This document shows, piece by piece, positions 13,826-51,166 of a DNA stretch of 64,000 bases. Numbering within the stretch: position 1 is the first letter of the stretch; the number at the start of each line of letters is the position of its first letter. The notes beneath the pieces were generated by a model. That model was given only the letters and a program-made list of their open reading frames with translations, was not told where the DNA came from and did no database searches. A program made the translations under genes and the position numbers. Origin of the DNA: an uncultured Candidatus Saccharibacteria bacterium. Lineage in GTDB: Bacteria; Patescibacteriota; UBA1384; CAILIB01. The stretch lies in NCBI GenBank assembly GCA_964593885.1, contig CAZQKK010000002.1:84363-148362 (forward strand), given 5' to 3'.

Positions 13826-16800
13826 ATGAAAACACAAGAGTACAGCGAGCAGTCTAACGACTTCAATGCCGTGCAGCTGCGGGTAGCAAGCCCAGATACC
13901 ATTCTGAGCTGGTCCCACGGTGAAACGCTGAAGCCAGAGACTATCAACTACCGCACCCAGAAGCCAGAGCGTGATGGCCTCTTCTGTGAGCGAATCTTTG
14001 GTCCTACCCAGGACTACAAGTGTTACTGTGGCAAATACAAGTCCATCCGTTACAAGGGAGTTATCTGTGACAAGTGTGGCGTTGAGGTAACAAAGTCATT
14101 TGTTCGTCGCGTCAGAATGGGTCACATTGACCTAGCCGTTCCAGTTGCTCACATCTGGTACGTCCAGGGTGTGCCTTCAGTGCTCGGTATGCTCCTCGAC
14201 ATGTCAGTTTCAGAGCTTGAGAAGATCATCTACTTCGCCGCTTACGTCATCCTTGATGTAAACGAGGACATCCGCAAGGAAGCCCTCGAGCAGCTTGAAG
14301 GTGAGTTCAAAGAGCTCCGCGCTGCCCTCCTGGACAACAAGTCAGCATCTGAGGTTACTGGCGATGCGCTCATCCGTCTCCAGCAGGTTGAGGCAGACTA
14401 CAAAGAAGCCAAGGGAGAGCTTACAAGCCTCGCAGCTTGCACGGTTATCTCTGAGGCTACCTACCACGATCTCTCACTCCGTTACGGAGCGATTATCAAG
14501 GTTGGAATTGGTGCTGAAGCAATCCGCGACCTCCTGAAGTCTGTAAAGCTTGAAGAGGGGATTGTTAGGCTCAAGGTTGAAGCAGACAACGCAAGCCCAC
14601 TGCAGCGCCGCAAGGCAATCCGTCGCCTGAAGCTCTACAACGACCTTCACAAGGCACAGATTAGTCCAGAGTGGCTGGTACTCTACCGTCTCCCTGTTAT
14701 CCCACCAGACCTTCGTCCGATGGTACAGCTTGATGGTGGTAGGTTTGCCGCTTCAGACCTCAACGACCTCTACCGTCGCGTTCTCAACCGAAACAACCGC
14801 CTCAAGAAGCTCCTCAACAGTGGTGCTCCTGAGGTAATCACCCGCAACGAGAAGCGCATGCTTCAAGAAGCGGTTGATGCCCTCGTGGACAACAACGCTC
14901 GTCGTGGAAAAGCTGCTGCAGCTGCTACTGGCCTCAAGCGAAAGCTCAAGAGCCTTTCTGACATGCTCCGCGGTAAGCAAGGACGTTTCCGTCAGAACCT
15001 CCTCGGAAAGCGCGTAGACTACTCCGGTCGTTCAGTAATTGTGGTTGGTCCTAACCTCAAGCTTCACCAGTGTGGACTTCCTAAGATGATGGCACTTGAG
15101 CTATTCAAGCCATTCCTCATTGGTCGTCTCATCAATGGTGGCTACGTCCACAACGTGAAGAACGCTACCCGTCTCATTGAGCAGGGTGAGAGCTTCATCT
15201 GGGACATCCTTGAGGACATCACCAAAGACCACTTCGTACTCCTCAACCGTGCTCCTACCCTTCACCGTCTCGGTATCCAGGCTTTCCAGCCGGTACTAAT
15301 TGAAGGTAAGTCCATCCAGATTCACCCACTCGTATGTACTGCCTACAACGCAGACTTCGATGGAGACCAGATGGCGGTTCACGTTCCTCTCTCTAAGGCT
15401 GCTCAGAAGGAAGCTGGAAGCATTATGCTTGCAAGCCACAACCTCCTGAAGCCTGCTTCTGGTGAGGTTATCGTTTCACCTACCAAGGACATGATTCTCG
15501 GCTGCTACTACATGACCCAGCTCAACGCTGATCAGAAAGGCGCCGGAAGGAGTTTCTCAAGTCAGGACGAGGCTATCATGGCCTACGACGCTGAAGTTGT
15601 TGAGTTCCTGGCTCCAATCAAGGTGCTCATCAACGGTGAGATGCTCGAGACAACAGTTGGTCGAATTATGTTCAACCAGATTGTCCCTGAAGCACTTGGC
15701 TACCAGAACACCGTTATGGATAAGAAGGGTGTTGCTAAGGTTATCGCCCGAAGCTTTGAAGAGCTTGGTACCGAGGTAACTGCCCAGTTTGTAGACGACC
15801 TCAAGAACATTGGGTTCACCTACGCTGAGCGTTCAGGTATTACCTTTGCCCTTTCAGATATCGTTATCCCAGACTCAAAGGATGCGGTGCTCGACAAGGC
15901 AGACGCTGCTGTTGACGAAATTGACAAGCAGTACCGCCGAGGTCTCATCACCAAGGAAGAGCAGTACGTGAAGACGGTTGAAATCTGGCTTGATGCCTCA
16001 AAGGTACTAGAGACAGATGTTATCAAGGGCTTCACCGAGAAGAACCCTATCATGACCATCTTCAAATCAGGTGCTCGTGGTACGATGACCAACCTCAACC
16101 AGATTGCTGGTATGAAGGGTCTCGTAGCAAACCCATCTGGAGCGATTATTGAGATTCCTCTCAAGAACAACTTCAAAGAAGGTCTCTCAGTGTTTGAGTA
16201 CTTCATTTCAACTCACGGTTCACGTAAGGGACGAGCAGACACTGCACTTCGTACATCTGATGCAGGGTACCTTACCCGTCGTCTCGTAGATGTTGCTCAA
16301 GATGTAGTGGTTGCCGAAACCGACTGTGGAAGCAACGAAGGCGTAACCCTCTACAAGTCTGATGAACTCCAGTTTGTCGACAAGTTTGAGGATTCTCTCC
16401 TCGGCCGCTTCACCGTAGGTGAGCAGGCAGGAGTTAAGGCAAACACCTTTATTGATGAAGAGGTTGCTAGGAAGCTCGCTGTTCAGGATGAGGTTATCGT
16501 AAGGTCTCCTCTCTACTGTCACAGTTCATGGGGAATCTGTCAGCACTGCTACGGAAAGAACCTCGCGAGTGGTCTCCTCGTAGAGCACGGTGAAGCAGTT
16601 GGTATCATCGCCGCGCAAGCAATTGGTGAGCCAGGAACCCAGCTGACCATGAAGACCTTCCACATGGGTGGAGTTGCTCAGACTGGTGGTGACATTACTG
16701 CAGGTCTCCCACGTGTTGAAGAGCTCTTTGAGGCTCGTTCGCCAAAGACACCTGCAATCATGGCTGAGATTGATGGAAAGGTAAGGATTGAGGAACGTCC

Positions 16801-17563
16801 AGAGGATATGCTCGTTACCATCCTTTCAGACAAGTCTGATTCACAGCTGGTGCATGTGCCAAAGGGCTACACCGTTGTGGTACAGGCTAAGGACAAGGTT
16901 GCTCCTAAGGACATCCTTGCTGAGTCAAAAGAGGGACGAAGTCTCCGCGCTACCCTCGCTGGTGTTGTCTCAATTGAAGAAGGCAAGGTAATTGTTACCG
17001 CCCACGAGACAGCCACCCGTGAGTACACCATTAGCAATAGCACCTCACTCAAGGTTGAGAACGGGGACGTTGTTACTAAGGGACAGGCGCTCACCGAAGG
17101 TCACCTTGACCTCCAGCAGCTCCTGTCACTCACCGGAAGAAAGGGTGTTGAGCGTTACATCGTCAACGAGGTACAGAGCATCTACTCTTCACAGGGTCAA
17201 ACCATTCACAACAAGCACATCGAGATTATCATCCGCCAGATGCTGTCAAAGGTGCAGGTTGTGGCTGCAGGTAACAGTGAGTACATTAGCGGTCAGACCA
17301 TCGAGCAAACAGACTTCCGTGCTGCTGACAAAGCAGGCCACACGGTTGAAGCTGACCAGCAGCTCCTCGGTATTACCCGTATCTCACTTCGCACCAAGAG
17401 CTTCCTCTCAGCCGCTTCATTCCAGGAAACTACCAGCGTTCTCATTGACGCTGCCGTCCAAGGAAAGCGTGATGAGCTAAGGGGCTTGAAAGAGAACGTG
17501 ATTATTGGTAAGCTCATTCCTGCTGGAACTGGCTACCAGCAAGAAGAAGCCAGTTCTAACTAA
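13826..17563 (+). CDS. rpoC: DNA-directed RNA polymerase beta' subunit.
   Basis: Zn-finger CYCGKYKSIRYKGVICDKCGVEV, catalytic NADFDGDQMAVH, and a trigger loop. Confidence 0.97.
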   Translation: MKTQEYSEQSNDFNAVQLRVASPDTILSWSHGETLKPETINYRTQKPERDGLFCERIFGPTQDYKCYCGKYKSIRYKGVICDKCGVEVTKSFVRRVRMGHIDLAVPVAHIWYVQGVPSVLGMLLDMSVSELEKIIYFAAYVILDVNEDIRKEALEQLEGEFKELRAALLDNKSASEVTGDALIRLQQVEADYKEAKGELTSLAACTVISEATYHDLSLRYGAIIKVGIGAEAIRDLLKSVKLEEGIVRLKVEADNASPLQRRKAIRRLKLYNDLHKAQISPEWLVLYRLPVIPPDLRPMVQLDGGRFAASDLNDLYRRVLNRNNRLKKLLNSGAPEVITRNEKRMLQEAVDALVDNNARRGKAAAAATGLKRKLKSLSDMLRGKQGRFRQNLLGKRVDYSGRSVIVVGPNLKLHQCGLPKMMALELFKPFLIGRLINGGYVHNVKNATRLIEQGESFIWDILEDITKDHFVLLNRAPTLHRLGIQAFQPVLIEGKSIQIHPLVCTAYNADFDGDQMAVHVPLSKAAQKEAGSIMLASHNLLKPASGEVIVSPTKDMILGCYYMTQLNADQKGAGRSFSSQDEAIMAYDAEVVEFLAPIKVLINGEMLETTVGRIMFNQIVPEALGYQNTVMDKKGVAKVIARSFEELGTEVTAQFVDDLKNIGFTYAERSGITFALSDIVIPDSKDAVLDKADAAVDEIDKQYRRGLITKEEQYVKTVEIWLDASKVLETDVIKGFTEKNPIMTIFKSGARGTMTNLNQIAGMKGLVANPSGAIIEIPLKNNFKEGLSVFEYFISTHGSRKGRADTALRTSDAGYLTRRLVDVAQDVVVAETDCGSNEGVTLYKSDELQFVDKFEDSLLGRFTVGEQAGVKANTFIDEEVARKLAVQDEVIVRSPLYCHSSWGICQHCYGKNLASGLLVEHGEAVGIIAAQAIGEPGTQLTMKTFHMGGVAQTGGDITAGLPRVEELFEARSPKTPAIMAEIDGKVRIEERPEDMLVTILSDKSDSQLVHVPKGYTVVVQAKDKVAPKDILAESKEGRSLRATLAGVVSIEEGKVIVTAHETATREYTISNSTSLKVENGDVVTKGQALTEGHLDLQQLLSLTGRKGVERYIVNEVQSIYSSQGQTIHNKHIEIIIRQMLSKVQVVAAGNSEYISGQTIEQTDFRAADKAGHTVEADQQLLGITRISLRTKSFLSAASFQETTSVLIDAAVQGKRDELRGLKENVIIGKLIPAGTGYQQEEASSN

Positions 17564-17569
17564 GAAACT

Positions 17570-17983
17570 ATGCCAACAATCAACCAGCTCCTCCGCCGCC
17601 CGCGGGTTACCGCTAAGAAGAAGCCTAACGCTCCGGTTTTGAAGTCAACCTTCAACACCTTCAAGAAGCGTCACGTTCCTCTTAACGCACCTCAGAAACG
17701 TGGAGTTTGCATCAAGGTTACTACCACCACACCAAAGAAGCCTAACTCGGCTCAACGTAAAGTAGCGCGCGTGAGGCTCACCAATGGTATGGAAACCTGG
17801 GCCTACATTCCAGGTGAAGGTCACAACCTCCAGGAACACTCAGTGGTTCTGGTGCGTGGCGGCCGGGTAAAGGACCTTCCAGGTGTTAAGTACCACATTG
17901 TGCGTGGCAAACTAGACGCACAAGGGGTAAAGGGCCGAAAGAAGAGCCGCAGCCTCTACGGCGTCAAGAAAGACGCAAAGTAG
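17570..17983 (+). CDS. rpsL: 30S ribosomal protein S12.
   Basis: [12 protein letters not shown]...[18 protein letters not shown]. Confidence 0.95.
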
Positions 17984-17995
17984 AGTGCTCAAAAA

Positions 17996-18024
17996 AAGCC
18001 TCGGAGAGATCCGGGGCTTTTTTG
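17996..18024. terminator. Bidirectional intrinsic terminator between rpsL (+) and the antisense coiled-coil gene (-).
   Basis: aaaaaaa-GCCTCGG-agagat-CCGGGGC-tttttt: a GC-rich stem flanked by an A-run and a T-run. Confidence 0.55.
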
Positions 18025-18375
18025 TTACACCTGAGCCAAGTGGTGAGCTGCTTTGTGGAGAGCTGTAGTGGTCTTTGCGTGCTGGGCGAGGTTCATGCTG
18101 CCTGACAGAGCAACTTGGTTAAGTTGAACCTGCATGCTTTGCACGGTGGTTTCCAAGGTATCTAGTCTGGACTCAATAGCGTCCAATCTAGCTTCCACCC
18201 TATCCAATCTAGCCTCTACTCTGTCCATCCTCGTTTCAAGGGACATCACGACAATTTCCAGGCTATCTACCTTGAGCTCTAGCGTGTCTATTCGCTTAGT
18301 AAGGGTAGCAATTGCCTGAGTGAGCGGCTCAAGAGCCGTCATTAACTCCTGAAGGGTGAGTGGTTTGTCCTGCAT
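18025..18375 (-). CDS. Hypothetical coiled-coil protein built from heptad repeats (x-L/V-E-x-R-L-D).
   Basis: ...DTLELKVDSLEIVVMSLETRMDRVEARLDRVEARLDAIESRLDTLETTVQSMQVQ. It lies on the strand opposite to rpsL and rpsG, inside the str operon. Confidence 0.55.
   Translation of the reverse strand: MQDKPLTLQELMTALEPLTQAIATLTKRIDTLELKVDSLEIVVMSLETRMDRVEARLDRVEARLDAIESRLDTLETTVQSMQVQLNQVALSGSMNLAQHAKTTTALHKAAHHLAQV
18134..18320. repeat. In-gene tandem 21-nt repeats, the DNA image of the heptad repeats.
   Basis: tccaatctagcttccaccctatccaatctagcctctactctgtcca: the unit tccaatctagcYtcYacYctR occurs twice in tandem, with degenerate copies either side. Confidence 0.5.
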
Positions 18376-18454
18376 AACCCAACCCTACAACGGGGGACAC
18401 GTGAGCGCAAGAGAACAAAACCCGGAAAATTCTTGACACCTTGCTCACACCTAA

Positions 18455-18482
18455 GTTACAAAAAACCACCCGAGGGGGGTGG
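18455..18482 (-). terminator. Intrinsic terminator for the minus-strand membrane-protein gene.
   Basis: The minus strand reads ccaccccccctcgggtgg followed by ttttttgtaac. Confidence 0.5.
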
Positions 18483-18495
18483 TAGAAACTAGTTA

Positions 18496-19167
18496 CTATC
18501 CGTATTCGCCACGCTCCTTCTCAATCTTAGCAACCCACGCTGACCATTCTCGCGACGTGGATCTGAAGACCGAAATTGCTGAGTAGGGTGACTGTGACAT
18601 GTAAGCTACGAAACCGGTGGTTGCTACCAGAAGGGGTATGAGAACCACCCACTGGTTTGGATGTTTGAGGCTCCATACCGCTGTAATGAACAGTGGAGTA
18701 AGAATACTGAAGAAAGCCAGCATTCCTACCGGGTTCAATTGTGTTGGCTCTAGTCCAAGCTTCCTCCGGAAAACCTTCTCCAGGAAGTAGCTGTGGATTC
18801 CCATCCCAATGATGTAGAGCATGAGACCAGATACCAATACGAACAGGACTGCCGTTGGCACGTAGAAGTCATGCATCCATACCCTGGAGTAAGACGTCGT
18901 AGATAGGATGTACTGGATTGGCATCCCGACAACGAAAGCTGCAAGTGAAAAGATGATCAAGTAGCAGCAGAGTACTTGGACGTCAGCCACTACCTTAAGT
19001 TGCCTCGCCAGCTGGAGGTTAGTGAAAAGATACTGTTTGCGTAACGGTGGATTGTTAATGTGACACCTTCCTTTGCGGCACATACTAGCAAAAGAGTAGG
19101 GAACCTGGTAGTATACACAGGATTTATCAATCGGTGCGCAGTACCAGACTCCCTGGGAAGTAAGCAC
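18496..19167 (-). CDS. Hypothetical integral membrane protein, about 4-5 TM helices, with a Cys-rich N-terminal segment. The true start may be an internal Met.
   Basis: N-term VWYCAPIDKSCVYY...MCRKGRCH, then hydrophobic helices (LCCYLIIFSLAAFVVG, AVLFVLVSGLMLYIIGMGI, LAFFSILTPLFITAVW, VVLIPLLVATTGFVAY). Its 5' end overlaps the region just upstream of rpsG. Confidence 0.45.
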   Translation of the reverse strand: MLTSQGVWYCAPIDKSCVYYQVPYSFASMCRKGRCHINNPPLRKQYLFTNLQLARQLKVVADVQVLCCYLIIFSLAAFVVGMPIQYILSTTSYSRVWMHDFYVPTAVLFVLVSGLMLYIIGMGIHSYFLEKVFRRKLGLEPTQLNPVGMLAFFSILTPLFITAVWSLKHPNQWVVLIPLLVATTGFVAYMSQSPYSAISVFRSTSREWSAWVAKIEKERGEYG

Positions 19168-19193
19168 ACCAAACCTAATTGTAAGGAGACACT

Positions 19194-19670
19194 ATGTCCC
19201 GAGGTACCCGTAAAATTGATCGCAAGGAGCTTGCGCCTGATCCAGTGTATGGTTCAGTTACCGTGAGCAAGATGATTAACTACATCATGAAGAACGGAAA
19301 GAAGACCGTTGCTACTAAGATTGCCTACGGCGCCATTGAGAAGGCTGCTGCTAAGCTTGAGGTAGAGGCTCTCGATATGCTTGAGACAGCAATCAAGAAC
19401 GTTACCCCAGTAGTTGAGGTACGTGGACGAAGAGTTGGTGGCGCAAACCTGCAGGTACCAGTTGAGGTTCCTCGCTCACGTCGTCTGATGCTTGCACTCC
19501 GTTGGATCCTCGATGCTGCTCGAAACGCTAAAGGTAAGCCAATGGCAGATAAGCTAGCAAACGAGCTCATTGCAGCCTACAACAACGAAGGTTCTGCTAT
19601 CCGAAAAAAGGATGAGACCCACCGTATGGCTGAGGCTAACAGAGCTTTCGCCCACTTCGCCCGTCGTTAA
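19194..19670 (+). CDS. rpsG: 30S ribosomal protein S7.
   Basis: MSRGTRKIDRKELAPDPVYGS...; an AGGAGA RBS lies 8 nt upstream. Confidence 0.95.
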   Translation: MSRGTRKIDRKELAPDPVYGSVTVSKMINYIMKNGKKTVATKIAYGAIEKAAAKLEVEALDMLETAIKNVTPVVEVRGRRVGGANLQVPVEVPRSRRLMLALRWILDAARNAKGKPMADKLANELIAAYNNEGSAIRKKDETHRMAEANRAFAHFARR

Positions 19671-19673
19671 GTT

Positions 19674-19916
19674 ATGAAGAAGGTACTCTACATTTCGTTT
19701 GCTGCCTTCTTGGTTACCCTGGGTTATCAGTTCTATTTCGCGTACGCTCCTATCAGTGGCATCGGCGTTGACCATTACTTTGATCTTCCTGCCTCAATGC
19801 AGCCTGATTCCGTGCTGTACACTCAGCTCATTCTCATTGCTTCAGTTCTGGGAATGATAATCTCATCTATTTCTATCACTATCCAAAAGCGTAAAAAGGA
19901 GAATCATGCCTCGTGA
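19674..19916 (+). CDS. Small hypothetical membrane protein, 2 TM helices, 80 aa.
   Basis: [19 protein letters not shown] and [19 protein letters not shown] followed by KRKKE. It starts 4 nt after rpsG and overlaps the fusA start by 11 nt. Confidence 0.4.
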
Positions 19917-22011
19917 ATATCCTCTAGAAAAAGTTAGGAACATTGGTATCATCGCCCACATTGATGCGGGTAAAACTACCACCACAGAGCGCGTGCTCTA
20001 CTACACCGGAAAGACCCACAAGATTGGTGAGGTGCACGATGGTGCTGCAACCATGGACTGGATGGAGCAGGAGCAGGAGCGAGGTATCACCATTACCTCA
20101 GCTGCTACTACCGCTTTCTGGACCCCTACCACCCGTGAAGGTAAGGACACCCACCGTCTCAATATCATTGATACCCCAGGACACGTAGACTTCACCGTTG
20201 AAGTACAGCGTTCACTTCGCGTACTAGACGGAGGAGTTGTCGTATTTGATGGTGTAGCTGGTGTAGAGCCACAGTCTGAGACTGTTTGGCGCCAAGCTGA
20301 TGAGTACGGAGTACCTCGCGTCTGTTTCATCAACAAGCTCGATCGCATGGGTGCTGACTTCTTCAAGGCGTACAAGTCTATCCTCGATCGCCTCAACCCA
20401 AACGCTATCCCAGTTCAGCTCCCGATTGGTTCAGAAGCTGAATTCAAGGGAATCATTGACCTCCTCACCGGCACAGCCCGCATCTACAAAGATGACATGG
20501 GCAAGGTATTTGAGGACGTTTCAGTACCTGCGGAATACCAGGAAATGTACACCGAGTGGCGCACCAAGCTCCTCGAGAAGATTGCCGAGCAAGATGATGT
20601 ACTCATGGAGAAGTTCTTTGCTGGTGAAGAGATGACCATCGCCGAGATGCGCGCTGGTATCCGTAAGGGAACCCTCGCTCGCACCCTCATCCCAGTTCTC
20701 TGTGGTTCAGCCCTCAAGAACAAGGGCGTTCAGTCAATGCTTGACGCCGTAGTTGAGTACCTCCCAAGTCCACTGGATATCCCAGCAATTAAAGGTACCA
20801 ACCCAAAAAACCCTGATGAGCAACTTGAGCGACACGCCGATGACTCAGAGCCTTTCTCAGCCCTCGCCTTCAAGATTGCTTCAGACCCATTCGTGGGGAA
20901 GCTTACCTTCTTCCGTGTTTACTCAGGCATGCTGAAAGCTGGTTCGTACGTCTACAACTCAAGTAAGGGTGAACAGGAACGAATTGGTCGTATTGTTCGT
21001 CTCCACGCAAACAGCCGTGAAGATGTGAACGAAGTGTACTCGGGTGAAATCGCAGCCGCTATCGGCCTCAAGAACACCACAACAGGGGACACCCTCACCG
21101 ACCAGAGTAAGCAGATTCTCCTCGAAACCATCAACTTTGCCGATCCTGTTATCCAACAGTCTATCGAGCCTAAGACTAAGGCTGACCAAGAGAAGATGGG
21201 TATTGCCCTCTCACGTCTCTCAGAAGAAGACCCAACCTTCAGAATCACCACCAACCACGAGACGGGTCAGACCCTTATCGCTGGAATGGGTGAGCTCCAC
21301 CTCGAGATCATCGTTGATCGTATGAAGCGCGAGTTCAAGGTTGAGGCAAACGTTGGTCAGCCACAGGTAGCTTTCAAAGAGGCTATTCGTATGGCTGTTA
21401 AGGACATTGATGGTAAGTTCGTTCGTCAGTCTGGTGGACGCGGACAGTTTGGCCACGTTGTGATCGACATGGAACCAGCAGAGCGCGGCTCCGGATTTGT
21501 CTTCGAGAACAAGATTGTGGGTGGTGCTATTCCTAAGGAGTTTATCAAGCCTGCAGAAGAAGGAATGCGTGAAGCCCTCGAGCGAGGTGTACTCGCTGGC
21601 TACCCAGTTCTCGACGTTAAGGTTACCCTCAAAGATGGTTCGTACCACGATGTAGACTCCTCAGAAATGGCATTCAAAATTGCCGGATCTATGGCAGTCC
21701 AGGTAGCGGTTAAAGCTGCAAACCCTGCCATCCTTGAGCCAATCATGAAGGTGGAGGTCCTCGTACCTGAAGATTACTTCGGTGAGGTAATGGGCGATAT
21801 CAACAGCCGTCGTGGTCAGATTCTCGGTACCACCGAGCGCGTTGGCCTCAAGGTTATCGACGCCGAGGTTCCTCTTGCAAGCATGTTTGGCTACACCACC
21901 ACCCTGCGCTCGATGAGTCAGGGACGTGGTACCTCCACCATGGAGTTTGCCCACTACGCTGAAGTTCCAAACAATGTTCAGCAACAAATTATTGACGGCA
22001 AGGTAAAGTAG
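19906..22011 (+). CDS. fusA: Elongation factor G.
   Basis: [29 protein letters not shown]. Confidence 0.97.
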
Positions 22012-22032
22012 TTGCCTACTTGCCACCAGAAG

Positions 22033-22064
22033 CAGCCACTCGAAAGGGTGGCTGTTTTCTTTTC
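22033..22064 (+). terminator. Intrinsic terminator after fusA.
   Basis: cagccac-tcgaaagg-gtggctg followed by ttttcttttc. Confidence 0.55.
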
Positions 22065-22090
22065 TCGAGTATTTGAGGTACACTCATCCC

Positions 22091-22807
22091 ATGCGACAGT
22101 ACGTCATTCCAAACCTCCAAAACTACACACTCAGAGATGCAACCTCTGACTACAATGCCTCAGACCTGCAGGTAAAGCGCGATGCTTTGGCATCAAAAGT
22201 TATTGAAGAGCTTACCTACTTCTTTGGCGAAGGTTGTCCAGCAATTGCGGTAATTAAGGAGAAAGGTCTTCTACCCTTCATGTGGGTTATGGGAGCAGAT
22301 GACAACCAGGAAGATATTAAGCGAATTTTCCACGTTGATGACCACACCGCGCAGGGGATTCGCCACATTCTCAACCTTGCAGACATTCTTGCTCCAAAGA
22401 AGGTGGGATCCCAGTACCTCCTCCGTACCGCCAGAGATGTGGTACTTGCGGTAGATGACCTCCCATACAAGGAAAGAGAGGAGGTTGTCGTGCTCCTCGT
22501 TGACGCATCACAGCTCATCATTCATAGGGAACTCATCAGTGTGGGTGGAATTGATGGTGCTACACTCAACCCTTCAGATGTTCTCGTACCGGTAATTCAA
22601 CGTGGTGCTCCTGCTTTTGTCCTCGTTCACAACCACCCATCTGGTGATCCAACTCCAAGCCAGGTTGACCTAGACTTCACTGCCAGGGTAAAAGAAGCTT
22701 CGGTACTGATGAAGAAAGCTTTTTTAGACCACGTCATTGTTAGTTCACATGGGATGAGAAGCTGCCTGGATGTCTTGGAGAGTAAATCTGTTGACAAGCA
22801 GGAGTAG
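22091..22807 (+). CDS. radC: RadC-like JAB/MPN-domain protein (UPF0758 family). The ATG is at 22091; the track's TTG start at 22073 is less likely.
   Basis: JAB signature VLVHNHPSGDPTPSQVDLDFTARVKEASVLMKKAFLDHVIVSS. Confidence 0.8.
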   Translation: MRQYVIPNLQNYTLRDATSDYNASDLQVKRDALASKVIEELTYFFGEGCPAIAVIKEKGLLPFMWVMGADDNQEDIKRIFHVDDHTAQGIRHILNLADILAPKKVGSQYLLRTARDVVLAVDDLPYKEREEVVVLLVDASQLIIHRELISVGGIDGATLNPSDVLVPVIQRGAPAFVLVHNHPSGDPTPSQVDLDFTARVKEASVLMKKAFLDHVIVSSHGMRSCLDVLESKSVDKQE

Positions 22808-22820
22808 TTTCGTCTATAAT
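22791..22820 (+). promoter_or_regulatory. Near-consensus sigma70 promoter for tuf, lying within the 3' end of the radC-like gene.
   Basis: TTGACA, an 18-nt spacer, then TATAAT. An AAAGGAG RBS sits 6 nt before the tuf ATG at 22908. Confidence 0.6.
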
Positions 22821-22907
22821 CACCTCTGATACGGTTACTGCCGCTTTTCTGTGGTTGTAGCATCAAATTACAAAATTACGTTCACGTAACAGTTGAAAGG
22901 AGTTTGC

Positions 22908-24086
22908 ATGGCAGAGATGTTCCAACGTACAAAGCCTCACGTAAATGTAGGTACCATTGGTCACGTTGACCACGGTAAGACTACCCTTACGGCAGCTATT
23001 TGTACCATTCTTGCAAAGAAGGGTCTTTCACAGGCTCGTAGCTATGCAGATATCGACAATGCCCCAGAAGAGAAGGCACGTGGTATTACCATCGCCACCT
23101 CTCACCAGGAGTACGAGTCAGCAGTTCGTCACTACGCACACGTTGACTGTCCAGGTCACGCAGACTACGTAAAGAACATGATTACGGGTGCTGCTCAGAT
23201 GGATGCTGCAATTCTTGTAGTATCTGCTGCTGACGGTCCAATGCCACAGACTCGTGAGCACATCCTGCTCGCTTCTCAGGTAGGTGTTAAGAACATTGTC
23301 GTCTTCCTGAACAAGGTAGATATGGCAGATGAAGACCTCCTTGAGCTAGTAGAGGTTGAGGTTCGTGACCTCCTTTCTAAGTACGGCTTCCCAGGAGATG
23401 ACGTTCCAGTTATCAAGGGATCAGCTCTCAAGGCTCTTGAGGGTGACGCTAAGTACGAAGAGGCTATCATGGAGCTCGTAAGCGCCCTTGATACCTACGT
23501 TCCAGATCCAGTTCGTGAAACCGACAAGCCACTCCTTATGCCTGTTGAGGATGTATTCTCAATCAAAGGCCGCGGAACAGTTGCTACCGGTCGTATCGAG
23601 CGCGGTACTGTTAAGGTAGGTGAAGAGGTAGAGATCGTTGGTATCAAGCCAACCAAGAAGGTTATTGTTACCGGAGTAGAAATGTTCCGCAAACAGCTTG
23701 AGCGCGGTGAAGCTGGTGACAACGTTGGTCTCCTCATGCGTGGTATTGAGCGCGAAGACATTGAGCGTGGTCAGGTTATCGCTAAGTCAGGTTCAATTAC
23801 TCCTCACACAGACTTTGACTCAGAAGTATACGTACTCTCTAAGGAAGAAGGCGGACGCCACACTCCATTCTCAAAGGGCTACAAACCACAGTTCTACGTT
23901 CGTACAACAGACGTAACTGGTGAGGTTGTTCTCCCAGATGGTGTAGAAATGGTTATGCCAGGAGACACCGTTAAGATGAAGGTTTCCCTTATCGTACCGG
24001 TAGCTATGGAAGATGGTATGCGTTTCGCTATCCGCGAAGGTGGACGTACCGTAGGTTCTGGTGTAGTAACCAAGATCCTCAAATAA
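22908..24086 (+). CDS. tuf: Elongation factor Tu.
   Basis: [43 protein letters not shown]. Confidence 0.97.
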
Positions 24087-24104
24087 GTTTTCAGTACACG
24101 TAGT

Positions 24105-24120
24105 CCCGCCCTTGGGCGGG
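24105..24120 (+). terminator. GC hairpin after tuf, a weak terminator or attenuator.
   Basis: cccgccc-ttg-ggcggg followed by attcgtgtgtt. Confidence 0.4.
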
Positions 24121-24171
24121 ATTCGTGTGTTGAGAACCAAACATCAACTCAACAAGTAGTAATTTCACGGA

Positions 24172-24489
24172 ATGGCCGAAGCAGCAAAGCAGAAAATTCG
24201 CATCAGACTCAAAGCTTACGATTACCGTATCATTGATAAGTCTGCAAAGCACATCATTGATACCGCCGTACGTACTGGCGCAAGCGTTGTTGGACCTATC
24301 CCACTTCCTACAGACCGCAAGATTACTACCGTTCTCAGAAGTCCTCACGTTGATAAGGACTCCCGTGAACAGTTTGAGATGCGCATCCACAAGCGCTTGA
24401 TTGACGTTCTTGACCCAACATCCTCTACAATTGACTCTCTGATGAACCTAGACCTGCCTGCAGGTGTAGACATCGAGATCAAGATGTAG
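24172..24489 (+). CDS. rpsJ: 30S ribosomal protein S10.
   Basis: [24 protein letters not shown]. Confidence 0.95.
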
Positions 24490-24551
24490 TCAACCCTATC
24501 CACCCCTAGAAAGCAGAACCTCTGGTACACCGTGCCACGTTCGGAGACACC

Positions 24552-25157
24552 ATGACACCGCTCCTCGGCTACAAACTGGGAATGACCCGCGTCTTTGATG
24601 CGAACGGTCGTGCAGTGCCTGTTACCGCCATCCAGGTACAGGATTGCTTTGTTACCCAGGTAAAAACACAAGAGAAGGATGGTTACACAGCCATTCAGGT
24701 TGGTACTGGCACCAAACGCCACCCAAACAAGCCACTGGCTGGACACACCAAGAACCTAGAGGCAACCCCTCAGTTCCTTGTAGAGTTTAGACTCGACGAT
24801 GTTGCTGATTTTGCCGTAGGTCAGAAACTTGACCTCTCATCAGTAGAAACGGGAAACCGCCTCAAGCTGGTTGGGATGAGTAAAGGTAAGGGATTTGCCG
24901 GAGTTATCAAGCGCCACAACTTTAGTCGTGGTCCAGAAACTCACGGTTCAGACCACCACCGAGCTCCGGGTTCTATTGGTTCAATGTTCCCTCAGCACGT
25001 TATGAAGGGTAAGGGAATGCCAGGACGTATGGGTTACGATCAGCAAACCCTCCGTAAAGTTGAAGTCATTGACGTGCTACCAGGGGAGCAGCTGCTCCTC
25101 GTAAAGGGACCTGTACCAGGCATCCGTGGTGCTCTCGTCCAGATTTCCCCAATGTAA
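24552..25157 (+). CDS. rplC: 50S ribosomal protein L3.
   Basis: [24 protein letters not shown]...[13 protein letters not shown]. Confidence 0.95.
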
Positions 25158-25167
25158 GGGCCTCCAT

Positions 25168-25794
25168 ATGTCTACATTCAAACTCTACACACTCGAAGGA
25201 AAGTCTGCCGGAACGGTTGCAAAACCCTCTCTCTTTGAGACTCCGGTAAATGAATCCCTCATTCACCGTTACTACATCTGGGTACGCACCATGCTGCGTA
25301 ACAACCTCGCCCACACCAAAACCCGTGGTGAGGTATCTGGAGGCGGAAAGAAGCCTTGGAAGCAAAAGGGAACCGGTCGCGCTCGAAGCGGATCAACCCG
25401 AAACCCAATCTGGCGTCACGGTGGTACCATCTTTGGACCACGTACCAGCCAAACCTTTGCAACCCGTATGCCACGTGGCGAACGTCGTAAGGCGCTCTTC
25501 TCAGCTCTCGCTAGCAAAGCTAACAGCGTTATTGTTCTTGAAACACCTCGCACAGGTGCTAAGACCAAAGAGAGTGTTGCACTCTTCAAAGCTCTCAACA
25601 TCAGTGGCAAAAAGGTTCTTGAGATCCACTCTGAGTACGAAGCTGCAGCATTCGCTGCCAGCAAGAACATCCCAGGTGTTGTTTCAAAGACTGTTTCACA
25701 CGCAAACATTATCGACATCCTCCACGCTGATGTTCTCTTGTTCACCAAGGACTCACTTGAGGCATTCGACAAGCACTTCAACCCTGCCGTATGA
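25168..25794 (+). CDS. rplD: 50S ribosomal protein L4. The ATG at 25168 was chosen; the track ORF begins earlier and overlaps rplC.
   Basis: KPWKQKGTGRARSGSTRNPIWRHGG. Confidence 0.9.
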   Translation: MSTFKLYTLEGKSAGTVAKPSLFETPVNESLIHRYYIWVRTMLRNNLAHTKTRGEVSGGGKKPWKQKGTGRARSGSTRNPIWRHGGTIFGPRTSQTFATRMPRGERRKALFSALASKANSVIVLETPRTGAKTKESVALFKALNISGKKVLEIHSEYEAAAFAASKNIPGVVSKTVSHANIIDILHADVLLFTKDSLEAFDKHFNPAV

Positions 25795-26099
25795 AGACTC
25801 CACTAGCCCCACACATCACCGAGAAGGCATACTCACTCATTTCTGAGGAAAAGGGTATCGCTAATCACTACACCTTCAAGGTTGCTAAGACCCTCCGTAA
25901 GGAGCACATCAAGGCAATGATTGAACGTGAGTTCAAGGTGCACATCACCAACATTCGTACTATCAACCTCCCAGGTAAAGTTAGGGTTTTCAAGGGTAAG
26001 GCTGGCCACACTCAGGCAACCAAGAAGGCAATTGTTCGCCTGAAGGTTGGTGAGAAGATTGCTGCCTTTGATCTGAAATCCAACGAGGAGACTAAGTAA
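25791..26099 (+). CDS. rplW: 50S ribosomal protein L23.
   Basis: Position in the operon and the [21 protein letters not shown] pattern. Confidence 0.85.
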
Positions 26100-26104
26100 G
26101 TCCT

Positions 26105-26941
26105 ATGGCACTCAAACGCTACAAACCAACTTCCGACGGTCGTCGGAACATGACCTCCCAGGACTTTGCTGGCCTCACCAAGGTTGAGCCTCAGAAGTCA
26201 CTCCTCGTGCCTCTCAAGAAGCGCGGCGGACGCAACAACGCTGGTAGAATTACCGTTCGTCACCAAGGCGGAGGTGCTGCTCGTATGTACCGTCTCATCG
26301 ACTTCAAGCGTAACAAAGATGGCATGAAGGCCACCGTTACCTCCGTTGAGTACGATCCAAACCGCTCTTCAAACATCGCCCTCCTTACCTACACTGACGG
26401 TGAGAAGCGCTACGTCCTCTCTCCAATGGAAGTTACCGTTGGTGACACCATTGAGAATGGTTCAGAGGCTCCAATTCGTCCAGGAAACTCACTTCCAATC
26501 AAGGACATTCCTATTGGTATCCAGATTCACAACATCGAGCTTCAGCCAGGCAAAGGCGGACAGCTTGCTCGTTCTGCTGGTGTATCTGTTACGCTCTTGG
26601 CGAAAGAGGGGAAATATGCTACCATCAAGCTCGCAAGTGGTGAGCTCCGCAAGGTTCTCGTAACCTGCCGGGCAACCATCGGTCAGATTGGTAACAACCT
26701 CCACTCTTCCGTGATTATCGGAAAAGCAGGTCGCCAACGCCACCTCGGTATTCGCCCAACTGTTAAGGGTAAAGGCATGAGTCCTCGCTCCCACCCACAC
26801 GGTGGTGGTGAAGGTCACAGCCCTATCGGTCTCAAGAAAGGTCCTAAGACTCCTTGGGGTGCCCTTGCACTAGGTGTGAAGACACGTCACCGAAAGAACC
26901 CAACCAACGTCTTTATCCTCGCACGTCGTAAGAAACGTTAA
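26105..26941 (+). CDS. rplB: 50S ribosomal protein L2.
   Basis: [16 protein letters not shown]...[12 protein letters not shown]. Confidence 0.95.
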
Positions 26942-26946
26942 CCGCC

Positions 26947-27222
26947 ATGTCACGATCACTCAAAAAAGGACCGTTTATTGACGCCAAGCTCGTAAAAAAG
27001 CTTGCAGACGTTAAAATTGGTGACAAAACTGTCGTAAAGACATGGAGTCGTTCTTCTACCATCTCACCAGATATGGTTGGAAAGACCATTGGTGTGCACA
27101 ACGGACGTATCCACGTTCCAGTACACGTCATTGAAGACATGGTTGGACACAAGCTTGGTGAGTTTGCGCTAACCCGCAAGTTCCTCCGTCACGGCGGCAA
27201 GAAAGCAAAGATGGGAGCCTAA
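26947..27222 (+). CDS. rpsS: 30S ribosomal protein S19.
   Basis: [12 protein letters not shown]...[24 protein letters not shown]. Confidence 0.95.
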
Positions 27223-41330: not shown

Positions 41331-43715
41331 ATGAAAGTTAGCTACGAGTGGCTCCTAGACTACGTTGACACCCACACCCCAGCGCTTGAGCTTGGGGAGA
41401 AGTTCCTCATGACCTCATCTGAGCTTGAGGGTGTCGATGCGTGGACTGAGAAGCTCTCCCAGATTGTTGTTGGCGAAGTGCTCACCTGTGAACCACACCC
41501 AAATGCCAGCAAGCTTAAACTCACCACCGTAAGCGTAGGTGGGCGAAAGAAACTCAAGATTGTTTGTGGAGCACCTAACGTAGCCGCAGGATGCAAGGTA
41601 CTGGTAGCCCTTCCAGGAGCAACCGTTACCTCTCGTGACGGCAAGACAAGCTTTACCATCGCTCCAACAACACTGAGGGGCGAAGTTTCAGAGGGGATGC
41701 TCTGCGCCGCTGAAGAACTTGGATTGCCAGCTCAGGGCGATGGGCTCCTGCTCCTCCCAAAAACCGCCAAGGTAGGCATACCTGCTGCAAAGTTCTTGAA
41801 CAGAGAAACCACCGTTCTTGACCTGGAGATCACCCCAAACAGACCTGACCTCCTGAGCTACGTTGGTCTCGCCCGTGAAGTGGCAACCTTTGATAGGAGA
41901 ACTCTCAGAGAGCCAAACCTTTTACCTCTGGAAAACCTCCAGCACCTCCCAGCAAACCAGACAGTCACCTCAAGTAATACCCATCTCTCAAGTAGGCTGA
42001 GTGTGATTCAATTTGAGGTTACTGGCAGTGGTGAAACTCCAGCTTGGATGTCCTCACGCCTCGAACTCTCTGGAATTCGCCCCATCAGCCCCGTAGTAGA
42101 CGTAGCCAACTACGTGATGCTGGAGCTAGGGCAACCACTCCACACCTACGACGCCTCAAAACTCCCGGGCACCGCCCAGGGAAAGCAAGACTTTACCGCT
42201 GGCACTCCAGCAAAACCCCTCAAGCTCAAGGTTCTGGATGGTAGCACCCGCGAGGTTACCACAGATGATATCGTCATCAGCGTCCACGGTGAGGTAGTTG
42301 GTATTGCAGGCATCATTGGGGGCGAAGCAACAGCCATCACATCAGAGAGTACCGGATTTATCCTAGAAGCAGCTTCGTTCCACGGACCAGCCATTAGGCG
42401 AACTTCCCGTAGGCTTGGCCTCCGTACAGAAGCAAGCAGCAGGTTTGAGAAGGGAGTAGACCCAGAGCTCACCATCACCGCCATCAAACGCGCCGCCTAC
42501 CTCTACCAACAGCTTGGCATTGCTAAGCCAAGCAGCCGCCTCGTTGATTTCGCCCACCATAAACGGGGGAGCGAAAGACCGCGCATCCACGTCACCTCTG
42601 AGCAAATCCAGGGAATCCTTGGTGTCCACATTTCCCTCGGCGAAGCAAAGCAAATCCTCCAGAAGCTCGGCTTCACCCTCCTCCACGTCACCAAAGCCTC
42701 TCTAGACTGCATCCCACCTAGCTGGCGCGCCGATGTGACCAGGGAAGAGGACGTCCTTGAGGAGCTGGTGCGAATTTGGGGGTACGATAGGGTCCCAAGC
42801 ACCCTCCCAAGCTCTAGTGTTAAGCCCCCACAAGAAAACCTCGAGTTCTCGAGGTTAATGAGTATGCGCCACGCTTCAGCTTCGCTTGGCTTCAGAGAAA
42901 CCATCCACCTCTCATTCTCAAACGAGAGAGAAATCACAGCCTCAGGCCTCACCATCGCTGATGCAGTACCACTCCAAAACCCTCTCTCACTAGAGCAGAG
43001 CCACCTCCTGCCATCACACCTCATCTCGTTCCTGAGAACCACATCTGAGCACCAGGTTAACCCAGAAACCCGTCTCTTTGAGATTGGCTCAATCTTTTCA
43101 CGCCCTACCACCGAAACCAGAAAGTTTAGCGCCTGCGTAAGGACAGCCTCACCTGCAGAGGAAGCGCTCCAAGAGCTCAAGCAGCTGGTAGCATCACTCA
43201 CCACAGCTTGCAGAATCACCACACCAGTCTCGTACCAGGGGAGTGGTAGTACCTGCAGTATCACCCTAGGTGACACAGTAGTTGGCATGATCCAGATTGT
43301 TCCACTTGCTACTCTAGAGAAGTACAAGATTAGGCGCTCAAAGACCTTCCTCTTCCTAGAGCTAGACCTCGCTTCGCTCTTTACCGCTCCAGCAAACTTT
43401 GTCACGTACAGAGCACTTCCTGTTTTCCCAAGTATCCAGCGAGATATTTCGCTCCAGGTAGCTGAGACCACCCAATGGGAGGCAATTGAGAAGTCCCTCA
43501 AAACCCACCTCACCCAGGTTCCAAACAGCATGCATCTGACCTACACCTTCCTTGGAGTGTACAGAGGGAAACCACTGCCTCCGGATACCAAGTCTGTCAC
43601 GGTAAGGCTTACCTACCAGGGACAGGAGCGCACCCTCACCGACCAAGAAGTGGATACCGACCTCAAGAATCTCACCAAGCGACTCACCAACCTACCAGCA
43701 ACCATCGTCACATAA
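41331..43715 (+). CDS. pheT: Phenylalanine--tRNA ligase beta subunit.
   Basis: N-terminal tRNA-binding OB fold (CEPHPNASKLKLTTV), B3/4 and B5 domains, C-terminal FDX-ACB-like domain. Confidence 0.95.
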   Translation: MKVSYEWLLDYVDTHTPALELGEKFLMTSSELEGVDAWTEKLSQIVVGEVLTCEPHPNASKLKLTTVSVGGRKKLKIVCGAPNVAAGCKVLVALPGATVTSRDGKTSFTIAPTTLRGEVSEGMLCAAEELGLPAQGDGLLLLPKTAKVGIPAAKFLNRETTVLDLEITPNRPDLLSYVGLAREVATFDRRTLREPNLLPLENLQHLPANQTVTSSNTHLSSRLSVIQFEVTGSGETPAWMSSRLELSGIRPISPVVDVANYVMLELGQPLHTYDASKLPGTAQGKQDFTAGTPAKPLKLKVLDGSTREVTTDDIVISVHGEVVGIAGIIGGEATAITSESTGFILEAASFHGPAIRRTSRRLGLRTEASSRFEKGVDPELTITAIKRAAYLYQQLGIAKPSSRLVDFAHHKRGSERPRIHVTSEQIQGILGVHISLGEAKQILQKLGFTLLHVTKASLDCIPPSWRADVTREEDVLEELVRIWGYDRVPSTLPSSSVKPPQENLEFSRLMSMRHASASLGFRETIHLSFSNEREITASGLTIADAVPLQNPLSLEQSHLLPSHLISFLRTTSEHQVNPETRLFEIGSIFSRPTTETRKFSACVRTASPAEEALQELKQLVASLTTACRITTPVSYQGSGSTCSITLGDTVVGMIQIVPLATLEKYKIRRSKTFLFLELDLASLFTAPANFVTYRALPVFPSIQRDISLQVAETTQWEAIEKSLKTHLTQVPNSMHLTYTFLGVYRGKPLPPDTKSVTVRLTYQGQERTLTDQEVDTDLKNLTKRLTNLPATIVT

Positions 43716-43718
43716 GCC

Positions 43719-45116
43719 ATGAACCAGCGAATTCCCATCAGCGAGACCCAGAACAAAGTAGGCGAGAGAGTCGTTGTTTCAGGCTGGGTGCACCGTATCC
43801 GCGACCACAGTAAGGTTCTCTTCGTAGATCTCAGAGACCGCACAGGCCTCTTGCAGGTTGTCACCGGTGGCTGGGAGCCAGAGTCTTACGAGGTCATGAA
43901 AACCCTCAGCCTAGAAGACGTCATCACCATTGAGGGAGAAGTTGTGGCAAGGCCTGAAAAGCTTATCAACCCGGAGATGATCACTGGCAAGGTTGAGCTG
44001 CAGGCAAAGACTGTCGCCATCCTTGGCAAGAGCCAGACACCTCCATTCTCAGTGAACGAGGATACCAAAGAGGTTGAGGAAGAGCTCAGGCTCAAGCACC
44101 GCTACCTAGACCTCAGGTCTACCCGGATGGCAAAAAACATCCTCAACCGATCCAAGACTATTTCTTTCCTCAGGAAGCACCTTGAGGCAAACGGCTTCAT
44201 TGAGGTTGAAACACCAATCCTCACCGCCAGCACCCCAGAGGGCGCACGCGACTACGTGGTGCCAACCAGGAGCAAGGGCAACTTCTACGCCCTCCCACAG
44301 AGCCCACAGCAGTACAAGCAGCTCCTCATGGTAGGAGGTATTGAGAGGTACTACCAGATTGCCAAGTGCATGCGGGACGAAGACAGCCGGGGAGACCGTC
44401 AGCCAGAGTTCACCCAGCTGGATATGGAGCTCTCGTTCATGAAACAGGAGGACATCCTCCAGTTCACCGAGGACATGTACACCAAGCTGGTTACCGAGCT
44501 CTACCCCGAGAAGCACATCACCCAGTCTCCGTGGCCACGTCTCTCGTACAAAGAGACCATGGATACCTATGGAAACGACAAGCCAGACCTCAGGAAAGAC
44601 AAGAACGATCCAAATGAGCTAGCTTTTGCATGGATTGTAGACTTCCCACTCTTTGAATGGGACGAAGACAACAAGCGTGTCAGCCCAATGCACCACATGT
44701 TCACCATGCCACGCGAAGAAGACCTCCCACTCCTGGATAGCGAGCCGCTCAAGGTGATTGGTCAGCTCTACGACTTCGTCTGTAACGGCTACGAGATCGC
44801 CTCTGGAAGCATCAGGATCACCAACCAAGAGATTCAGAGTAAGATCTTTGAGCTCATCGGCATGCCAAAAGAAGAAGCTGAGGCTAAGTTTGGCCACATG
44901 CTCGAGGCATTCAAGTACGGTGCTCCACCCCACGGTGGCATCGCCCCTGGTATTGATAGGTTCCAGATGATTCTAGAGAACGAGCCAAACATCAGAGAGG
45001 TTATCGCCTTCCCAAAGACAGGTGAGGGGAGAGACCCAATGATGAAGGCTCCTTCGCCAATTTCTGATGCCCAACTCAAAGACCTTGGCATTACGGTAAC
45101 CCCTGAAAAGAAGTAA
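43719..45116 (+). CDS. aspS: Aspartate--tRNA ligase, short form lacking the bacterial GAD insertion domain.
   Basis: FYALPQSPQQYKQLLMVGGIERYYQIAKCMRDEDSRGDRQPEFTQLDMELSF; YGNDKPDLR followed directly by AFAWIVDFPLFEW; GAPPHGGIAPGIDRFQMIL. Confidence 0.8.
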   Translation: MNQRIPISETQNKVGERVVVSGWVHRIRDHSKVLFVDLRDRTGLLQVVTGGWEPESYEVMKTLSLEDVITIEGEVVARPEKLINPEMITGKVELQAKTVAILGKSQTPPFSVNEDTKEVEEELRLKHRYLDLRSTRMAKNILNRSKTISFLRKHLEANGFIEVETPILTASTPEGARDYVVPTRSKGNFYALPQSPQQYKQLLMVGGIERYYQIAKCMRDEDSRGDRQPEFTQLDMELSFMKQEDILQFTEDMYTKLVTELYPEKHITQSPWPRLSYKETMDTYGNDKPDLRKDKNDPNELAFAWIVDFPLFEWDEDNKRVSPMHHMFTMPREEDLPLLDSEPLKVIGQLYDFVCNGYEIASGSIRITNQEIQSKIFELIGMPKEEAEAKFGHMLEAFKYGAPPHGGIAPGIDRFQMILENEPNIREVIAFPKTGEGRDPMMKAPSPISDAQLKDLGITVTPEKK

Positions 45117-51126: not shown

Positions 51127-51166
51127 GCTGTTAACTATAGCAGAACTCACGTATACTGACAGGCAC

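Follow-up and report, generated by a model that had tools for sequence, protein, structure and literature searches.

A RadC-like gene between fusA and tuf in a Candidatus Saccharibacteria bacterium and its relatives

The window analyzed here is a stretch of 64,000 nucleotides (nt) from an uncultured Candidatus Saccharibacteria bacterium (contig CAZQKK010000002.1, positions 84,363 to 148,362 of the forward strand). It carries part of the str/S10 cluster of translation genes, and a gene for a RadC-like protein with a JAB domain lies between fusA, which encodes elongation factor G (EF-G), and tuf, which encodes elongation factor Tu (EF-Tu). An earlier note, made from the sequence alone, had described this radC gene as a stand-alone unit. 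We find that the same gene order is shared by diverged relatives, that radC lies between a predicted terminator and a predicted promoter that are themselves conserved, also where radC is absent, and that its coding interior has a different history from the DNA on either side. The features between fusA and tuf are as follows.

19906..22011, plus strand: fusA (EF-G, 701 amino acids), an open reading frame (ORF) and the final gene of the rpsG-fusA unit
22029..22058, plus strand: stem of the fusA intrinsic-terminator hairpin (terminator scan; 13 pairs, GAAA loop), with a T-rich tail to about 22064
22056..22084, plus strand: candidate weak radC promoter (-35-like TTTCTT at 22056..22061, a 17-nt spacer, and -10-like TACACT at 22079..22084)
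22091..22807, plus strand: radC, encoding a RadC-like JAB protein of 238 amino acids
22769..22807, plus strand: end of radC (its last 12 codons, …LESKSVDKQE, and the stop codon), which overprints the tuf promoter
22791..22820, plus strand: predicted tuf/S10 promoter, TTGACA-18-TATAAT
22821..22907, plus strand: tuf 5' leader (from alignments), with a Shine-Dalgarno sequence (AAGGAG) at 22897..22902
22908..24086, plus strand: tuf (EF-Tu, 392 amino acids), an ORF with rpsJ and the S10 genes downstream

The radC ORF was listed as 22073..22807, from a TTG start (244 amino acids). Because the close homologs all have 238 amino acids and align without gaps from the ATG at 22091, we take the gene to be 22091..22807.

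The fusA-radC-tuf arrangement and its predicted expression signals

Relatives were found first through close homologs of RadC and then by walking outward with relatives of EF-Tu. Five close RadC sequences (the window's own and homologs with 89%, 56%, 55%, and 53% identity) are all encoded just upstream of tuf and rpsJ, and fusA lies directly upstream of them wherever the contigs reach. The window's EF-Tu has homologs of 392 amino acids with 97-100% identity, and the Pfam domains of EF-G were found on the equivalent genes at all related loci. More broadly, fusA and radC are immediate neighbors, in this order, in the window and at eight related loci (L081, L085, L089, L092, L093, L095, L097, and L098), and tuf follows radC in all of these except L097, whose contig is too short. 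At L091, radC and tuf are adjacent and the contig ends before the fusA side.

The arrangement persists at considerable divergence. RadC is 45% identical to the window's in L092 (where EF-Tu is 97% identical), 37% in L093 (EF-Tu, 92%), 33% in L098 (EF-Tu, 91%), and 32% in L095 (EF-Tu, 91%), and each of these four loci has the order fusA-radC-tuf. A further RadC (P0007, 31% identity) is encoded directly after fusA on a short contig. The relatives that have names, as judged by EF-Tu, are "Patescibacteria group", CPR2, and Berkelbacteria, and one close RadC homolog is from a soil-metagenome bin labeled BH11PAT4; on this basis we regard the window as coming from a Patescibacteria (CPR) genome from soil. 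Two related lineages have no radC at this site: the P0127 contig has fusA, 173 nt, and then tuf, and L096 has a gap of 285 nt between fusA and tuf. The distant RadC genes (L001-L080) come from Verrucomicrobiota, Myxococcota, and other groups, and none of the 80 RadC loci listed from other phyla had EF-G, EF-Tu, S12, S7, S10, L28, or L33 within about 6 kb. By these comparisons, the arrangement is old and specific to this lineage. The earlier note had named synteny in relatives as a check, and the outcome is a shared fusA-radC-tuf order rather than a recent insertion.

Just downstream of fusA, the region 22012..22110 has a predicted folding energy of -33.2 kcal/mol, and 0 of 200 shuffled sequences were as stable (z = -4.15). 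The L091 hairpin has one compensatory change, from an A-T to a G-C pair. Hairpins that are rich in G+C and followed by runs of T, but with differing stem sequences, occupy the same spot after fusA in L092, L095, L096, L097, and L098. Altogether, terminator-like hairpins are present at 9 of the 10 loci with DNA covered downstream of fusA (L093 is unclear), including L096, which lacks radC. The hairpin fits a predicted Rho-independent terminator whose structure is conserved. The earlier note was thus right about a hairpin after fusA but had placed it at 22033..22064, while the stem spans 22029..22058 and the T-run extends to about 22064.

The promoter that the note had pointed out inside the 3' end of radC matches at all 12 of 12 consensus positions, and in our promoter scan it was the sole perfect match within 17000..27000. 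A sequence of the form TTGACA-N17/18-(T/C)AnnnT lies 104-117 nt ahead of tuf in 10 of the 10 loci that cover this DNA, again including the radC-less L096. This is a predicted sigma-70-type promoter whose hexamers, spacing, and position are conserved, and on this evidence it is very probable that a separate transcription unit begins with tuf and the S10 genes, much as the note had supposed.

The str/S10 cluster of this lineage is cut into rpsL, rpsG-fusA, radC, and tuf-S10 units. The earlier note saw radC as what breaks the operon between fusA and tuf, but in L096, which has no radC, the terminator after fusA and the TTGACA promoter ahead of tuf are found all the same, so the operon is broken independently of radC. 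As both signals are present in L096, radC seems to occupy a gap that was already there; the simplest reading, which the comparison suggests, is that the gap between terminator and promoter predates radC at this site. In that case radC would have become fixed, in an ancestor, between the fusA terminator and a separate tuf/S10 promoter, and would have been inherited vertically since then.

In the str operon of E. coli, secondary promoters for tufA lie inside fusA. The window is alike in that a tuf promoter lies within the end of the coding sequence that comes before tuf, which leaves tuf not strictly reliant on the first promoter of the operon; here, though, the gene before tuf is radC instead of fusA, and a strong terminator is predicted after fusA. 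With a strong terminator at that point, tuf and the S10 genes appear to be fully uncoupled from rpsG-fusA. An Rfam scan of the whole window found one tRNA only (62360..62432), and the fusA-radC and radC-tuf spacers had no match.

The overlap between radC and the tuf promoter is close. The stop codon of radC (22805..22807) falls between the two hexamers, and the codons for V-D-K (GTTGACAAG) contain the -35 box. The DNA of the 3' end (22769..22807) hardly varies, whereas identity over the remainder of RadC is 53-56%. About ten extra codons carry the ORF across the -35 box in the window group, L092, and L093. This tail is missing in L095, L097, L098, and P0006, where RadC ends ahead of the promoter (the promoter lies 82 nt past the radC stop codon in L095 and 16 nt past it in L098). 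We propose that the ORF was lengthened over the -35 box in the window's subclade and that the promoter then fixed its final codons. The tail of RadC (…LESKSVDK) would be invariant because the promoter, and not the protein, is under constraint. Such an overlap accounts for an otherwise puzzling invariant tail and is a caution against reading C-terminal conservation as a sign of protein function.

Near-invariance continues into the tuf leader. Its first 45 nt or so (22821..22865) hardly vary across six lineages (…TGATACGGTTACTGCCGC…, and also …CACCTCTGATACGGTTACTGCCGCTTTTCTGTGG…), and TGATACGG is retained in L093 and L095. Synonymous sites in tuf changed over the span in which the leader stayed nearly invariant. 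No Rfam family matched the leader, and an exact-pattern scan of metagenome contigs for the invariant promoter and leader gave no match. We do not claim that the leader is structured, as its predicted fold (z = -0.06) is no better than those of shuffled sequences.

As for radC itself, the DNA ahead of its start codon suggests that it probably has a weak promoter of its own, giving a leaderless mRNA. The TACACT box ends 6 nt before the ATG and is separated from the terminator stem by 24 nt. A TAnnnT box stands 6-7 nt ahead of the radC ATG in 10 of 10 lineages even though its surroundings have diverged: the box is TACACT in the window group and in L092, TAGCAT in L093, TAAAAT in L095, TAAAGT in L097, and TACATT in L098. 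For comparison, a TAnnnT box at this distance precedes only 2.0% of the window's ATGs. In L095, the promoter scan calls TTGCGA-17-TAAAAT at the position of the radC promoter, and L097 and L098 both have TTGCGT at a distance that matches the -35 of L095. The gene call for radC in L098 (5095..5877, 260 amino acids) opens right behind the stop codon of fusA and reads across the terminator hairpin; by alignment with other RadC proteins, the likely start is at nt 5173 (M27), which is 6 nt past the TACATT box. Also, radC has no conserved Shine-Dalgarno sequence: the window has GAGG 12 nt from the ATG, and this is lost in L085, L089, L091, and L092. The conserved box gives the earlier description of radC as a stand-alone unit some additional support. 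We envisage that radC is transcribed at a low level from a weak promoter within the 24 nt after the terminator stem and that the transcript starts at the A of the ATG at 22091. Some read-through of the fusA terminator into radC may occur as well. Since there is no terminator between radC and tuf, radC transcripts should run on into tuf.

Two observations weigh against a separate radC promoter. The -35-like TTTCTT of the window is poor, and the consensus scan calls no radC promoter there. Also, Shine-Dalgarno sequences are patchy in this genome and are missing from many of its genes, so their absence before radC is not diagnostic. Alternatively, radC may lack a promoter, so that its expression would depend entirely on partial read-through at the fusA terminator and radC would be the attenuated, distal member of the rpsG-fusA unit. 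The tight spacing (only 24 nt from the terminator stem to the -10-like box), the poor -35-like hexamer, and the negative scan would fit this. In addition, the five closest lineages hardly differ between the terminator and the ATG, which could reflect control at the RNA level. But the TAnnnT box keeps its distance of 6-7 nt where the surroundings have changed, and in L095 it belongs to a promoter that the scan does call. Furthermore, read-through transcripts would have no usable ribosome-binding site, given that the GAGG stands 12 nt ahead of the ATG and that four lineages have lost it. We regard expression by read-through alone as rather unlikely.

Probable exchange of the radC interior between sister species

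The four closest lineages (the window, L081, L085, and L089) support one tree for the interior of radC and another for the DNA around it.

22113..22768, plus strand: recombinant tract (radC interior), with a phylogeny at odds with its flanks

Inside the tract, 98 quartet-informative sites group the window with L085 and L081 with L089, versus 13 and 15 sites for the other two pairings. Outside it (9.5 kb), 516 sites group the window with L081 and L085 with L089, versus 37 and 39; fusA, tuf, rpsJ, the S10 genes, and the two spacers favor this pairing. In neighbor-joining trees, either of the conflicting pairings is backed by bootstrap values of 98-100%. The breakpoints lie within 22077..22112 and 22769..22773, which are the edges of the near-invariant flanks. 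At greater depth, the topology of the RadC tree matches that of the tree of fusA plus tuf, and in the distant genomes L093, L095, and L098 RadC identity follows that of PheT, in keeping with vertical descent. Protein identities between the window and related genomes are:

L081 genome: PheT 90%, RadC 56%
Soil bin (probably the L089 assembly): PheT 76%, RadC 55%
L100 (from the same Joint Genome Institute sample as L086): PheT 71%, RadC 89% (the L085/L086 allele)
L093 genome: PheT 50%, RadC 37%
L095 genome: PheT 44%, RadC 32%
L098 genome: PheT 40%, RadC 33%

The tree of the flanks is most likely the species tree. If so, the window's RadC is anomalously far from that of its sister L081 (whose EF-G is 98.4% identical to the window's) and anomalously close to that of L085. 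Both anomalies are explained if the coding interior was exchanged by homologous recombination through the conserved DNA on either side, and together these patterns point to an exchange of the radC interior between sister species. The near-invariant DNA on both sides of radC would let sister species swap what lies between by homologous recombination. Accelerated, independent evolution of RadC cannot be the cause of the conflict, as it cannot yield 98 sites with shared states. Nor do we claim that RadC evolves exceptionally fast: its deep divergence is ordinary when compared to PheT and is extreme only against EF-G and EF-Tu.

The RadC proteins fall into allele types with 53-57% identity between types and 74-89% within them, and the N-terminal domains are only 35-41% identical between types. 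Within types, the ratio of nonsynonymous to synonymous divergence (dN/dS) is 0.03-0.06; we read dN/dS only within types because synonymous sites are saturated between them (a proportion of synonymous differences, pS, of 0.68-0.84), so it gives no estimate of positive selection between types. By this measure, radC is a functional gene under purifying selection within types.

Exchange may be common in this group of organisms. Across 41331..45116, the window and L100 form a mosaic, with PheT 71% identical overall (about 65% around a near-identical stretch of roughly 70 residues) and with the adjacent aspS-type synthetase 95% identical, which suggests that recombination between these species is frequent. 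With pheT and aspS also mosaic, the exchange of radC need not be special or reflect any special selection. The species tree is based on the ribosomal region and PheT only, and L100 was assigned to the L085 organism by their shared sample alone.

The position of radC, in a fixed and insulated slot of the most conserved gene cluster, makes the locus a natural experiment. Alleles can be compared across species on a nearly constant background, which is convenient for studying the expression and evolution of RadC.

The RadC protein and its possible roles

The product of radC has two parts.

22091..22420, plus strand: N-terminal helical domain (amino acids 1-110)
22421..22765, plus strand: JAB domain (amino acids 111-225)
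22478..22480, plus strand: codon for E130
22628..22669, plus strand: HNH…S…D motif

The JAB domain is well supported. The Pfam family RadC (PF04002) matches residues 127-230 of the 244-amino-acid ORF with 94.2 bits (the cut-off is 22.1; E = 7.2e-27). In alignments of 11-35 RadC sequences, the residues of the JAMM site (E…HxH…S/T…D) are conserved: E130, H180, H182, and D193 never vary, and position 190 holds S or T. The fold is JAB/deaminase-like, with a solved RadC as its nearest relative. The RadC/JAB gene with an intact metal site that the earlier note had described is therefore borne out, and the predicted product has a catalytically intact JAB zinc-hydrolase domain.

The note had also raised a search of the N-terminal region for an additional sensor domain. 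In an AlphaFold model (mean predicted local distance difference test score, or pLDDT, of 81), a short N-terminal hairpin is followed by five helices (residues 23-100) and the JAB domain. A profile of the N-terminal domain aligns colinearly but weakly with the N-terminus of canonical RadC (hhalign probability 35%, E = 4e-4), and the GIG of the helix-hairpin-helix (HhH) hairpin in canonical RadC is replaced by VDD or VDE. A phmmer search with the N-terminal domain alone against 1.84 billion representative sequences found its own cluster only. On the basis of the model and these alignments, the first 110 amino acids are predicted to form a very divergent bundle of five helices, similar to a sterile alpha motif (SAM) or HhH domain, as in ordinary RadC, and not an extra sensor domain.

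The canonical RadC proteins (YicR of E. coli, YsxA of B. subtilis, and RadC of S. pneumoniae and H. influenzae) are of like size (about 220-240 amino acids) and have the same two parts, a helical SAM/HhH-type N-terminal domain and a C-terminal JAB domain with E…HNHPSG…S…D. In contrast to those genes, the window's radC lies between fusA and tuf and is neither beside mreB nor in a competence operon. The solved chain of RadC from Chlorobium tepidum (PDB 2QLC) is the JAB domain alone and is silent on the N-terminal domain and on the substrate.

RadC is among the most widespread bacterial proteins without a known function, and this locus alone does not reveal its role. In several phyla, all of them other than this one, competence is accompanied by the induction of RadC, yet a number of species can be transformed without it (PMC4630621, PMC6237807). 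Analyses of genomic context favor a role with DNA over one in translation (PMC3239186). By analogy with this literature, the protein might be a metal hydrolase of the competence-associated RadC type that processes DNA or nucleoprotein, but we have low confidence in this.

We think it reasonably probable that all of these features belong together, that is, that radC is a resident chromosomal gene of RadC type that sits in an ancestral slot, has a weak promoter of its own, overlaps the tuf promoter, has undergone allele exchange, and encodes a RadC-type hydrolase. Some results on the protein weigh against this account. It misses the cut-offs of the NCBIfam equivalog and subfamily models for RadC (97.1 bits versus 180 for NF000642 and 95.3 versus 133.85 for TIGR00608), which align over residues 79-230 only, and the canonical N-terminal family (PF20582, UPF0758_N) was not detected by a Pfam search of the protein. 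Also, the part of the genome that we have seen is the 64-kb window, so a second copy of radC may lie elsewhere.

RadC-like genes are common on prophages and conjugative elements (PMC5512222), and the earlier note had hinted at a link to mobile DNA or to defence. The JAB domain does match PHROG 10276 ("DNA repair protein", a phage RadC-like family; E = 1.7e-23), and the RadC domains of mobile elements (polyvalent proteins and fusions to ArdC or DinG; PMC5512222, PMC3239186) belong to the same JAB clade as the window's. Unlike those, the window's RadC is a stand-alone protein that appears to be vertically inherited in a core operon, and it has no fused or adjacent genes for mobility, anti-restriction, or helicase functions. 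The ORFs of the window include no integrase, transposase, or other mobility gene (no search for flanking repeats was made), and the G+C content of radC (48.1%) is close to that of fusA (51.6%) and tuf (49.1%). The idea that mobile or foreign DNA entered the str operon recently is already contradicted by synteny, with the arrangement found in ten lineages at PheT identities down to 40% and with a deep phylogeny that agrees with the flanks, and we consider it extremely improbable. For defence, the sole PADLOC match was to a generic JAB model (E = 0.002), and we found neither the specific profile nor the neighboring CD-NTase, E1/E2, or ubiquitin-like (Ubl) genes that mark anti-phage JAB proteins such as Cap3 of CBASS and the Bil deubiquitinase (DUB). 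An origin in a mobile element or a defence system is contradicted by the synteny, the composition, and the congruent deep tree.

The discrete allele types leave room for a different role in genetic conflict. radC could be a gene for defence, anti-defence, or the recognition of incoming DNA as self or non-self, with its allele types kept by balancing or diversifying selection and moved as a cassette. Types at odds with the species tree, breakpoints exactly at the ends of the gene, and N-terminal domains with only 35-41% identity between types are all consistent with this. But the strong purifying selection within types, a deep tree that agrees with the flanks, a divergence similar to that of PheT, and the lack of a partner gene or specific PADLOC match speak against it; the mosaic pheT and aspS suggest recombination in general, and just one pattern of swapping among four taxa is documented. 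We doubt that radC is such a conflict gene. We are just as doubtful of a more elaborate form, in which selection keeps radC as a cassette of discrete alleles, the terminator and promoter flanks serve as homology arms for swaps in naturally transformable Patescibacteria, and RadC, especially its fast-changing N-terminal domain, acts in conflict or recognition. If it were true, RadC might discriminate or process incoming DNA or counter mobile elements, and a long-enigmatic family would gain a role that can be tested.

It is also conceivable that RadC is tied to the translation apparatus, for instance as a JAB peptidase or hydrolase that acts on a substrate associated with the ribosome or an elongation factor, and is kept between fusA and tuf for that reason. 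The position is conserved down to 31% identity of RadC, and in E. coli K-12 the gene immediately ahead of rpmB-rpmG, in the same orientation, is the RadC homolog yicR. The E. coli cluster (yicR-rpmB-rpmG-mutM) resembles the window in that a RadC-like gene directly precedes a highly expressed operon for translation proteins, but the partners are L28 and L33 rather than EF-Tu and the S10 genes, and the phylum is different; the likeness is one of gene order only and may be a coincidence. Moreover, radC is insulated by the upstream terminator and by its own start signals, it is missing from the site in two related lineages, the listed loci from other phyla have no such neighbors, and published analyses of context point to DNA (PMC3239186). 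We find a link to translation improbable.

Our literature searches found no relevant report on RadC with Patescibacteria, on RadC with fusA and tuf, or on leaderless translation in Patescibacteria. Although the gene family is known, the lineage-wide fusA-radC-tuf slot, the predicted leaderless start behind a terminator, the overprinting of the tuf promoter, and the probable, cleanly bounded exchange of alleles are apparently undescribed in the literature that we searched.

Other features of the cluster and the window

The remaining genes of the cluster are:

13826..17563: rpoC, in the region upstream of rpsL
17570..17983: rpsL, ahead of two minus-strand ORFs
18025..18375 and 18496..19167, minus strand: two ORFs between rpsL and rpsG
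19194..19670: rpsG, upstream of fusA
24172 onward: rpsJ, which opens the S10 genes after tuf

The points at which the cluster is cut serve as slots for extra genes. The gap between rpsL and rpsG (17984..19193) is a second such slot, with contents that differ among lineages. In the window it holds two minus-strand genes, one for a 116-amino-acid coiled-coil protein (with repeats of the type RLDRVEARLD) and one for a 223-amino-acid membrane protein. The slot has cobW and nicotianamine-synthase-like genes in L081 and L092; L095, L096, and L098 have one or two small unannotated ORFs on the minus strand; and in L089 the gap is empty (164 nt). The 235-nt spacer between rpsG and fusA is filled by an ORF for an 80-amino-acid hydrophobic protein (19674..19916, plus strand), which overlaps the start of fusA. 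This spacer is 22 nt in L081 and 159 nt in L087, so the ORF is not conserved, and it may be an insertion or spurious.

Among the S10 genes of the lineage whose RadC is 89% identical to the window's, rplD (L4) is called with only 108 amino acids, after a gap of about 300 nt, while it has 208 amino acids in the other relatives. The short call recurs in three samples (L085, 5724..6050; L086, 4033..4359; and L087, 6386..6712) and may be due to a frameshift, an assembly error, or a different start. Elsewhere in the window, the leucyl-tRNA synthetase (48286..51315, minus strand, 1009 amino acids) has a match to the NUDIX family (PF00293, E = 1e-10) at residues 468-569. This match falls between the editing domain and the second half of the catalytic domain, which is an unusual insertion.

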